From sequence record OR670062.1: DNA of 37,572 nucleotides; one strand, written 5' to 3'. The position numbers and the translations under genes were made by a program. The stretch is from Escherichia phage SKA5. This document shows, piece by piece, positions 12,917 to 13,606 of this stretch. The notes beneath the pieces were generated by a model that had not been told where the DNA came from, made no database searches, and saw only the letters and a program-made list of their open reading frames with translations. Within the stretch, counting starts at the first letter, position 1, and the number at the start of each line of letters is the position of its first letter.

Positions 12917-12950
12917 TTAGAGTTGTGGTGAATGCGCAGGCTGATGCGCG
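12917..12950 (+). repeat. nut-like element, copy A (conserved 20-mer plus short hairpin)
   Basis: TTAGAGTTGTGGTGAATGCG followed by hairpin GCGCA-GGCTGA-TGCGC, just downstream of the pL-like promoter. Confidence 0.4.
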
Positions 12951-13028
12951 AAAGACATTGCAGCTATTGCGGAAAAGAGCTGTTCGGCGGGGCAATTAAA
13001 CGCCCGTATCTGGAGGTTAAAGAACAAA

Positions 13029-13304
13029 ATGAAAGTCCAGATTTTAAACAATAGTGGTGAAGTCGTTTGGTCATACGACATAGCCGCTCCTGTAGATCAG
13101 AGCGGCGATAGCTGGACCAATGGGAAACATCAGATTATGGCTGGAGTTGTATTCTCTTTACGCCGTGCTTTGGAACAGGCTGAAGTATTTCCATCAGACC
13201 CTGAATGGAAATGGCCTTTTTCTATTTGTCCAAATTCGGAGAGCACATTTCAGAAAATTGGTCAGAAAGTCGCACTCGAAGAGCATCAGCCAACTGTTTC
13301 CTGA
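13029..13304 (+). CDS. hypothetical protein
   Basis: 91-aa ORF downstream of the pL-like promoter. It overlaps the convergent ORF 13222..13467 by 83 nt, so one of the two may be non-coding. Confidence 0.3.
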   Translation: MKVQILNNSGEVVWSYDIAAPVDQSGDSWTNGKHQIMAGVVFSLRRALEQAEVFPSDPEWKWPFSICPNSESTFQKIGQKVALEEHQPTVS

Positions 13305-13467
13305 TTTTTTCAGGTAACTCGTCGGCATCGCAGAAACAACAACGCTCGATCATGTTGAAAGCCGATTCGTAGAACTGTTTCTGCTGAGTGTCGCTGAGAC
13401 AGGAAAAGAGCGACGTTACGATGATTTTATTAATTGCATTATCAAGTTCTTTTTCATCAAAAGTCAT
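13222..13467 (-). CDS. hypothetical protein (Cys cluster CCFCD)
   Basis: 81-aa ORF with an AAGGA SD 6 nt upstream; helix-like, charged composition. Oriented against the leftward early operon. Confidence 0.35.
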   Translation of the reverse strand: MTFDEKELDNAINKIIVTSLFSCLSDTQQKQFYESAFNMIERCCFCDADELPEKIRKQLADALRVRLSDQFSEMCSPNLDK

Positions 13468-13572
13468 TTGATTTTCCTTTTATGTATACGGGCTTAAAAG
13501 GATACCACCGAGCCTGAAGTGGTGAAAAGACAGGCACATAACAGCTAAGTATTTTCAACCAGAGAGAATCCT

Positions 13573-13606
13573 TAGCGTTGTGGTGAATGCGGCTCAGCGC
13601 ACGCGG
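13573..13606 (+). repeat. nut-like element, copy B (conserved 20-mer plus short hairpin)
   Basis: TTAGCGTTGTGGTGAATGCG (19/20 identical to copy A) followed by a TGCG-GCTCAG-CGCA hairpin. Confidence 0.4.

Follow-up and report, generated by a model that had tools for sequence, protein, structure and literature searches.

A repeated 20-mer in the pL operon of Escherichia phage SKA5 marks the 5' boundary of a structured prophage RNA related to STnc100

This study was concerned with a 20-nucleotide (nt) sequence that occurs twice on the same strand of a 37,572-nt stretch of DNA from Escherichia phage SKA5 (sequence record OR670062.1). This whole stretch is called the window, and positions are those of the window unless another sequence is named. 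The repeated sequence lies in a lambdoid prophage immunity region, downstream of the early-left promoter pL, and the position of pL bears out the statement of a first-pass annotation, made from the letters of the sequence, that both copies belong to the leftward early transcript. Copy 1 begins at about +1 of pL. Copy 2 lies more than 600 nt further on and opens a complete structured RNA element, which is followed by an intrinsic terminator and by the early-left genes. The features of the region are collected in Table 1.

Table 1. Features of the immunity region and pL operon in the window
Feature	Position	Strand	Basis or remark
Q antiterminator gene (late genes)	5506-6300	-	
CII-like gene	11237-11821	-	ORF and domain search
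P22-Cro-like gene	11849-12046	-	ORF and domain search
pR promoter	12107-12078	-	
cI-like repressor gene (HTH and Peptidase_S24)	12142-12795	+	ORF and domain search
pL promoter, TTGACA-18-TACATT	12882-12911	+	Operator palindromes overlap at 12858-12876 and 12893-12911
Copy 1 of the 20-mer, TTAGAGTTGTGGTGAATGCG	12917-12936	+	Helix P1 5' strand GUUGUGGUG at 12922-12930, AAU at 12931-12933, then start of hairpin 1
Truncated variant A, first 91 nt including hairpin 1 (12934-12949)	12917-13007	+	Identity to Stx2c phage
Recombination junction, 19 nt	13008-13026	+	Equals 3' end of ClpX-type zinc-finger gene plus orf33 ribosome-binding site in E. coli GF75
orf33-like ORF, 91 aa, no Pfam family	13029-13304	+	Arrived with SfV-type module
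Antisense ORF, 81 aa, good ribosome-binding site, no Pfam family	13222-13467	-	Putative gene
Copy 2 of the 20-mer, TTAGCGTTGTGGTGAATGCG	13572-13591	+	Helix P1 5' strand at 13577-13585, AAU at 13586-13588, then start of hairpin 1
Complete structured core of B-type STnc100-like element, ~125 nt	13577-13700	+	Rfam match, minimum free energy fold, covariation
Single-stranded linker UUUAUGCUGUGUGUAGUCUU	13701-13720	+	Between core and terminator; nearly unchanged in Salmonella phage ST64B
Intrinsic terminator, 11-12-bp G+C-rich stem, then CUCUUUUU	13721-13767	+	Sequence, fold
Long hairpin, 25-nt arms	13768-13856	+	Conserved in ST64B and SfV; in block before first early-left gene
First early-left gene	13954-14517		Preceded by conserved block including the long hairpin
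ORF, open reading frame.

The two copies of the 20-mer have 19 of 20 bases in common. The first-pass annotation had reported this repeat with starts at 12917 and 13573, and a pattern search confirmed the repeat and the first of these positions; the second was off by one, the true start being 13572. No match to the 20-mer was obtained in 100 dinucleotide-preserving shuffles, and no third copy with up to three mismatches is present on either strand of the whole window. The short hairpins with stems of 4-5 bp and 6-nt loops that had been described behind each copy can also be seen in the sequence. The hairpin after copy 1 is GCGCA-GGCUGA-UGCGC (12934-12949), with a stem of 5 bp and a loop of 6 nt. 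The sequence after copy 2 can form UGCG-GCUCAG-CGCA (13588-13601; 4 bp, 6-nt loop) or GCGGC/GC(A)CGC (13589-13604), the latter being the fold conserved in the family described below. The 20-mer itself is composed of a few leader bases, the 5' strand GUUGUGGUG of a helix designated P1 (here called helix P1, as distinct from phage P1), an AAU junction that does not vary, and the opening bases of hairpin 1. Its bases 6 to 14 thus represent one strand of a long-range closing helix, the partner of which lies about 115 nt downstream of copy 2 (13692-13700).

In copy 2 this closing helix is complete. The strand GUUGUGGUG (13577-13585) pairs with CACCACAAC (13692-13700), and five hairpins are enclosed: hairpin 1 (13589-13604), three variable hairpins, and a last hairpin, CCGGG-AGGCA-CCCGG (CCGGGAGGCACCCGG, 13677-13691), which abuts helix P1. 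Both the minimum free energy (MFE) fold and the centroid fold of 13565-13765 contain helix P1, the five hairpins and the terminator, with a z value of -2.5.

The Rfam comparison proposed in the first-pass annotation was carried out on the whole window. At gathering thresholds there was no match. In E-value mode a single family was identified, STnc100 (RF02076), a prophage small RNA of Gammaproteobacteria, at 13547-13769, which includes copy 2; the match covers the full 206-position model with a score of 45.2 bits (E of 2.6e-8 when computed on the region and 8.8e-7 on the whole window). Membership in STnc100 was judged from Rfam's own model and from direct counting of base pairs. In the STnc100 alignment the 20-mer extends from the 5' strand of helix P1 over the conserved GGUGAAU into the beginning of hairpin 1. 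Copy 2 has this same anatomy, with helix P1 flanking GGUGAAU on the 5' side and CACCGGGAGGCACCCGGCACC on the 3' side, and with covariation. The features in common with STnc100 are therefore the closing helix, the GGUGAAU junction, a bulged stem in hairpin 1, the CACCGGGAGGCACCCGGCACC hairpin next to helix P1 and a 3' terminator, and STnc100 is also prophage-borne and present in multiple copies in E. coli. The differences are that hairpin 1 of copy 2 is of the form GCGGC.. (B-type) and not CCCCC.., and that copy 2 is promoterless and located in the leader of the pL operon, whereas STnc100 copies described so far are located downstream of stx2 or in the neighborhood of Q and esterase genes (PMC12370729). 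Copy 2 is a close, sub-threshold relative of STnc100. The 20-mer forms the conserved 5' edge of a structured RNA module of prophages that is related to this family.

Relatives were collected by scanning one genome per bacterial species for the pattern GGTGAAT-N70-100-CCGGGARGCACCCGGCAC, which yielded more than 120 stretches from many enterobacterial genera. Among 128 unique relatives, the positions of helix P1 that were not fixed by the search pattern were paired in 100%, 100% and 97% of sequences, and one position of the helix was found as U-A in 81, C-G in 40, U-G in 6 and A-U in 1. Three further positions were paired in 73%, 66% and 58%. When one strand was slid by a single base as a control, the first three positions were paired in 1-10% of these sequences, and all six in 1-45%. 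In a 19-sequence alignment of B-type elements, 98.9% of the cells were paired and 15 cells had double-sided changes, a number that was reached by none of 500 shuffles; the slid controls were 26-54% paired. For example, helix P1 is GUUGCGGUG/CACCGCAAC in phage P1 and GUUGUGGUG/CACCACAAC in the window, and the last hairpin is CCUGG/CCAGG in prophage Qin of E. coli K-12 and CCGGG/CCCGG in the window, which is also a compensatory difference. Hairpin 1 and the last hairpin, including their loops, are invariant across genera in the B-type alignment. Because helix P1 and the last hairpin have compensatory changes among relatives, the helix containing the 20-mer is a selected RNA structure. The earlier suggestion that the repeat acts at the RNA level, and not as operator or promoter DNA, is upheld by these changes and by the conservation of the element in relatives, and the covariation analysis that had been recommended for this purpose found the closing helix to covary. 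A separate observation is that GC is present in both the hairpin 1 loop and the last-hairpin loop of the B-type and canonical elements inspected.

Downstream of its core, copy 2 is followed by the linker and the terminator. The same order (B-type element, linker, terminator, long hairpin) is found in ST64B, in which the core and the linker are almost unchanged and a terminator occurs at the same place with an entirely different stem sequence. Since ST64B keeps a terminator at this position with a different stem, the terminator appears to be conserved by function. The linker is a candidate seed or Hfq-contact region. No promoter-like site was found upstream of copy 2. The interior of the long hairpin that follows the terminator resembles the anticodon arm of a tRNA (GGGCUCAUAACCC, anticodon CAU), and matches to 13774-13824 in Klebsiella phages are annotated as tRNA-Asn/Arg. 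ARAGORN finds no tRNA or tmRNA in the window. This hairpin may represent either the remnant of a tRNA or a signal for processing.

The relatives fall into two types by their hairpin 1. The canonical elements (107 unique) have a hairpin 1 of the form CCCCC...GGGG. A -10-like hexamer (TAnnnT) is located 4-15 nt upstream of GGUG in 83 of the 107, and 46 passed a crude terminator screen. These canonical elements behave as stand-alone small RNA (sRNA) genes. In strain EDL933 there are 11 STnc100 copies, which are expressed and accumulate as RNAs of about 200 nt, one of them verified by Northern blot (PMC5331693), and one STnc100 copy overlaps the Hfq-bound sRNA EcOnc27 downstream of stx2B (PMC12711010). 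Tandem arrays of canonical elements were observed in Superficieibacter, with two or three copies about 220-260 nt apart on one strand. The B-type elements (14 unique, including copy 2 of the window) have hairpin 1 GCGGCUNAGCGCACGCG. One of them is the leader of tciA in the ban operon of phage P1. Another, in the Qin prophage of K-12 (NC_000913), is unannotated and takes up the spacer between the DicF terminator and a point about 25 nt ahead of the dicB start codon; it scores 34.4 bits and has a 17-bp closing helix (about 757-885 of the compared stretch). Closing helices of 13-17 bp were found in several relatives. The STnc100 scores of relatives were 39.5 bits in SfV, 41.9 in SJ46, 33.4 in phage P1 and 34.4 in K-12 Qin. 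The distance from the B-type core to the next start codon is about 27-66 nt in the clearest cases. The possibility that STnc100 is the leader of one downstream gene family was rejected, the ORFs after 125 elements being heterogeneous; the largest clusters among them contained 16 and 9 ORFs, which by sequence look like a putative outer-membrane protein and a putative holin. Published work on ManS/STnc500 and published RNase III cleavage maps are silent on the element, and a paper on mEp phages deals with another group of phages.

Copy 1 has a different history. It retains only the 5' strand of helix P1, GGUGAAU and hairpin 1, and it lacks the 3' half of the element to which it belongs, here called variant A, namely the last hairpin CCGG-AGAUCAGCA-CCGG and the helix P1 3' strand UCACCACAAC. 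A complete variant A is about 150 nt in length and consists of helix P1 (GUUGUGGUGA/UCACCACAAC), hairpin 1 (GCGCA/UGCGC), a divergent interior and the last hairpin abutting helix P1, and it is followed by the same terminator block as in the window. The Stx2c phage LC727889, whose cI and pL are the same as in the window, and mEp460 each have a single 20-mer, which opens a complete variant A. Of 5426 complete E. coli genomes, 818 carry variant A in full, and P1-like plasmids of about 92-96 kb are among its carriers. In pE2-2, the only such plasmid inspected, variant A follows tRNA-Asn and tRNA-Thr genes in the position of the ban operon of phage P1, and its closing helix has a compensatory G-C to A-U change. 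For copy 1 and variant A, pL itself serves as the promoter; from the spacing to the -10 hexamer, transcription from pL would start at about 12918-12919, within copy 1.

The comparison of the window with related phages locates the point at which variant A was cut. Window positions 12700-13007 are 100% identical to the Stx2c phage LC727889 (2401-2708 of the compared stretch), and 13027-13881, which holds orf33, the antisense ORF, the B-type element, the terminator and the long hairpin, is 97.7% identical to SfV. The 19 nt between these two blocks match E. coli GF75 (Table 1). An Stx2c-type immunity module (cI, pL and variant A) thus appears, by sequence identity, to have been joined at 13007/13008 to an early-left module of the SfV/GF75 type. 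The junction of the window was found in only 37 of the 5426 E. coli genomes and is also present in the isolated phage vB_EcoM-720R4. On this comparison, copy 1 is what remains, after truncation, of a second allele that occupies this slot. The duplication is a scar left by an exchange of modules and not a functional pair of sites. Because copy 1 lost its 3' half at the junction, the duplication is a by-product of mosaic recombination.

One consequence of this arrangement is that the 5' strand of copy 1 pairs slightly better with 13692-13704 (13 pairs) than does the strand of copy 2 itself. When the whole 851-nt pL transcript is folded, copy 1 (12918-12933) displaces copy 2 on 13690-13704 in both the MFE and the centroid structure, which are thermodynamic predictions. 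The local helix should be favored by co-transcriptional folding and the arrangement is rare, so the predicted displacement is treated as a curiosity and not as a mechanism. Two other observations were made on variant A. The loop of its hairpin 1, GGCUGA (window 12939-12944), is complementary (GCUGA/UCAGC) to the loop of the last hairpin, AGAUCAGCA (within 2620-2770 of the compared Stx2c stretch), and these loops could form a loop-loop tertiary contact. In addition, a short ORF (MRRLMRERHCSYCGKELFGG...; window 12932-13054, + strand) has a CxxC motif that recalls the ClpX-type zinc-finger gene; a search of this small ORF found no significant Pfam family, and it could be a gene relic or a coincidence.

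Taken as a whole, copy 2 is probably an STnc100-like RNA gene embedded in the pL operon, and its identity is surer than its function. Since it has no promoter of its own, it would be transcribed from pL after prophage induction. Termination at 13721-13767, probably with processing at the 5' end, would then release a small RNA, and read-through transcripts would continue into the early-left genes. By analogy with the canonical STnc100 copies, base pairing in trans is the most likely mode of action of the released RNA, which may depend on Hfq. The retention of the linker and terminator after the element in ST64B, despite the different terminator stem, is consistent with an sRNA. A precedent is DicF, which is made from an equivalent repressor-controlled operon by termination, with processing by RNases III and E (10.1101/2023.04.14.536235). 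Both DicF/dicBF in Qin and the element in the window are embedded in an early-left operon controlled by a cI-like repressor, with an intrinsic terminator that has to be read through for the downstream genes to be expressed. The 5' arm and loop of the terminator in the window align with K-12 DicF. The order is reversed in the two prophages, however: in the window the element precedes the DicF-like hairpin, whereas in Qin the B-type element directly follows DicF. DicF itself (RF00039) was rejected as the identity of the terminator hairpin (13708-13762), which scores 21.8 bits against a gathering score of 48, and pairing of a DicF-like tail with the ftsZ leader (-50 to +30) was rejected as well, with a duplex energy of -28 kcal/mol against a shuffle mean of -33.

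Several results weigh against an embedded sRNA gene. The score of copy 2 is 1.8 bits under the STnc100 gathering score of 47, and the STnc100 model misses variant A in a 241-nt stretch even at E<=10, so that the kinship of variant A rests on the common 5' 20-mer, the helix P1 3' strand, the terminator block and a similar architecture. STnc100 is akin to PasD, and a function has been established for none of its copies (10.64898/2026.05.13.724894). A -10-like hexamer was found in none of the 14 B-type elements and a nearby terminator is absent from 12 of the 14; these elements lie 25-70 nt before the first ORF of phage early operons, which fits a cis-acting leader better. In such a reading the B-type core, and likewise variant A, would act on the transcript of its own operon, for example as an RNase III or RNase E processing signal, as a 5' structure that stabilizes the mRNA, or as a tuner of terminator read-through or of translation of the next ORF. 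The closeness of an ORF start, the placement in the DicF terminator-dicB spacer of Qin (with its 17-bp helix P1) and before tciA in the ban operon of phage P1, and the 13-17-bp closing helices of several relatives all agree with a leader, as does the RNase III processing that is documented in the dicBF transcript (10.1101/2023.04.14.536235), although the mapped RNase III site is upstream of dicF and not in the element. The invariant hairpin 1 and last hairpin, loops included, would suit a core that binds a protein or RNA polymerase. In the sequences inspected, however, the ribosome-binding site is not sequestered by helix P1, the canonical members of the family are stand-alone genes, and in the window and ST64B the element is followed by a conserved linker and a terminator, which is typical of an sRNA. 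We regard action in cis on the operon transcript as rather unlikely. If it were nevertheless so, the B-type core, perhaps together with variant A, would be a previously undescribed leader module of repressor-controlled early operons in temperate enterobacterial phages, an idea that we put forward only tentatively. It may cover lambdoid pL operons, the ban operon of phage P1 (upstream of tciA) and the dicF-dicB spacer of Qin, with the core GGUGAAU-GCGGCUNAGCGCACGCG ... CACCGGGAGGCACCCGGCACC. The invariant hairpins would then bind a host or phage factor (an RNase, RNA polymerase or another protein) that controls processing, read-through or the first early gene, and the STnc100 sRNA genes that stand alone would have been derived from this module.

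The first-pass annotation had pointed to antitermination, describing a boxA-spacer-boxB organization and suggesting that the sites might be N-independent, put-like RNAs. The alternatives that it also listed, processing sites or sites bound by some other factor, may still apply. In the put-like case the nascent RNA would bind RNA polymerase and allow read-through of the terminator at 13721-13767 and of later terminators. The N gene is indeed absent from the pL operon, as had been stated, none of its ORFs encoding an N-like protein with an arginine-rich motif; all early-left genes are separated from pL by a strong terminator, conserved across genera, which has to be read through; and variant A of Stx2c-type phages resembles putL of HK022 in starting at about +1 of the pL transcript, upstream of terminators, in a phage without N (PMC9378689). 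The put RNA of HK022, however, consists of two stem-loops of about 70 nt (PMC9378689) and has one copy per early operon, whereas the element in the window is found on the pL transcript only, has no counterpart on the pR transcript, and forms a multi-branch fold closed by a long-range helix. The comparison with put that had been suggested was run by BLAST against the HK022 immunity and put region, and only chance-level matches of 9-15 nt were obtained. Moreover, canonical members end at the very next terminator as RNAs of about 200 nt (PMC5331693), which an antiterminator should prevent, and in Qin the element is downstream, not upstream, of the DicF terminator. A put-like function is for these reasons very improbable. 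The terminator at 12817-12842, at which the annotation had proposed a read-through analysis, lies upstream of pL, outside the pL transcript, and ends the cI transcript.

A pair of lambda-type nut sites served by an unrecognized N-like protein, or operator or promoter sites at the DNA level, would account for the short hairpin after each 20-mer, which recalls the short conserved sequence and small hairpin of nutL and nutR in an early transcript. Unlike those sites, the window has no boxA consensus, no boxB-like loop, no site in the pR operon and no N protein. The 20-mer proved to be a strand of helix P1 without a boxA, and the hairpin behind it to be the first of a multi-hairpin RNA, with a loop that in neither copy is a GNRA-like boxB pentaloop. 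Near the element in the pL transcript, a search for boxA (CGCUCUUA-like, up to one mismatch) identified only the terminator tail at 13758, which was rejected since it is not conserved in SfV or ST64B; neither 20-mer contains one, none was found in the pR transcript, and the 20-mer has no counterpart with up to three mismatches on the pR (-) strand. A boxA-like UGCUCUU(U/A)CC does occur directly 5' of the element in phage P1 and pE2-2 (UGCUCUUUCC / UGCUCUUACC), but in those two it forms the 3' strand of a tRNA-like hairpin located upstream, and neither copy in the window has it. As for DNA-level sites, the operators are a different 19-nt palindrome, and the compensatory changes point to selection on RNA pairing. 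Both variants of this explanation are extremely improbable. An immunity RNA of the P4 CI or phage P1 C4 type, suggested by the complementarity of the 20-mers to 13692-13704, was rejected also: the window has no C4 match, and the complementary segment is the 3' strand of helix P1 and not a loop. On the pR side of SfV and of the Stx2c phage, a C4 antisense RNA (82-84 bits) and an adjacent IsrK (64-67 bits) were observed (204-392 of the compared SfV stretch and 393-581 of the Stx2c stretch); the window is without both.

The operator, a 19-nt palindrome (ATGTAGGATATCCAACAT-like), is present in three copies that flank pR and pL (12079-12097, 12858-12876 and 12893-12911), and pL and pR have a 40-nt inverted repeat in common. 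The pL region is 100% identical to the immunity region of the Stx2c phage LC727889. The ORFs of the pL operon are orf33 (no family), a YfbR/HD-like ORF, a DUF551 ORF, an ORF of no family, an Rv2179c-like exoribonuclease and PrtN. The orf33-like ORF and the antisense ORF, both between the two 20-mers, overlap by 83 nt, and in another prophage, that of E. coli GF75, orf33 follows the ClpX-type zinc-finger gene. An arginine-rich ORF of 112 aa (13587-13925, + strand) spans the RNA element and the terminator. Its frame is not preserved in variant A, in which a stop occurs after 25 codons, and in a RefSeq genome the stretch matching it (2073-2383 of the compared stretch) is annotated as a frameshifted hypothetical protein. 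ORFs called across the RNA element, such as this one and its RefSeq counterpart, look like spurious calls over an RNA gene.

At face value this is an ordinary result, a sub-threshold member of a known prophage sRNA family together with a recombination scar. The promoterless B-type branch of this family, however, falls just under the Rfam cut-off, and it is consequently unannotated or covered by spurious ORFs for hypothetical proteins. This branch is present in the early-operon leaders of many Enterobacterales, two of its sites being the dicF-dicB spacer in K-12 and the leader of tciA in phage P1. Variant A is a second allele in the same slot, carried by the E. coli genomes and P1-like plasmids noted above, and it is detected by no Rfam model. 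Lastly, in phages of the SfV, ST64B and Stx2c types, which are without an N gene, each pL transcript meets a conserved strong terminator within about 0.2-0.9 kb. Because these phages have no N gene and yet this terminator must be passed, their early-left expression becomes a testable question.

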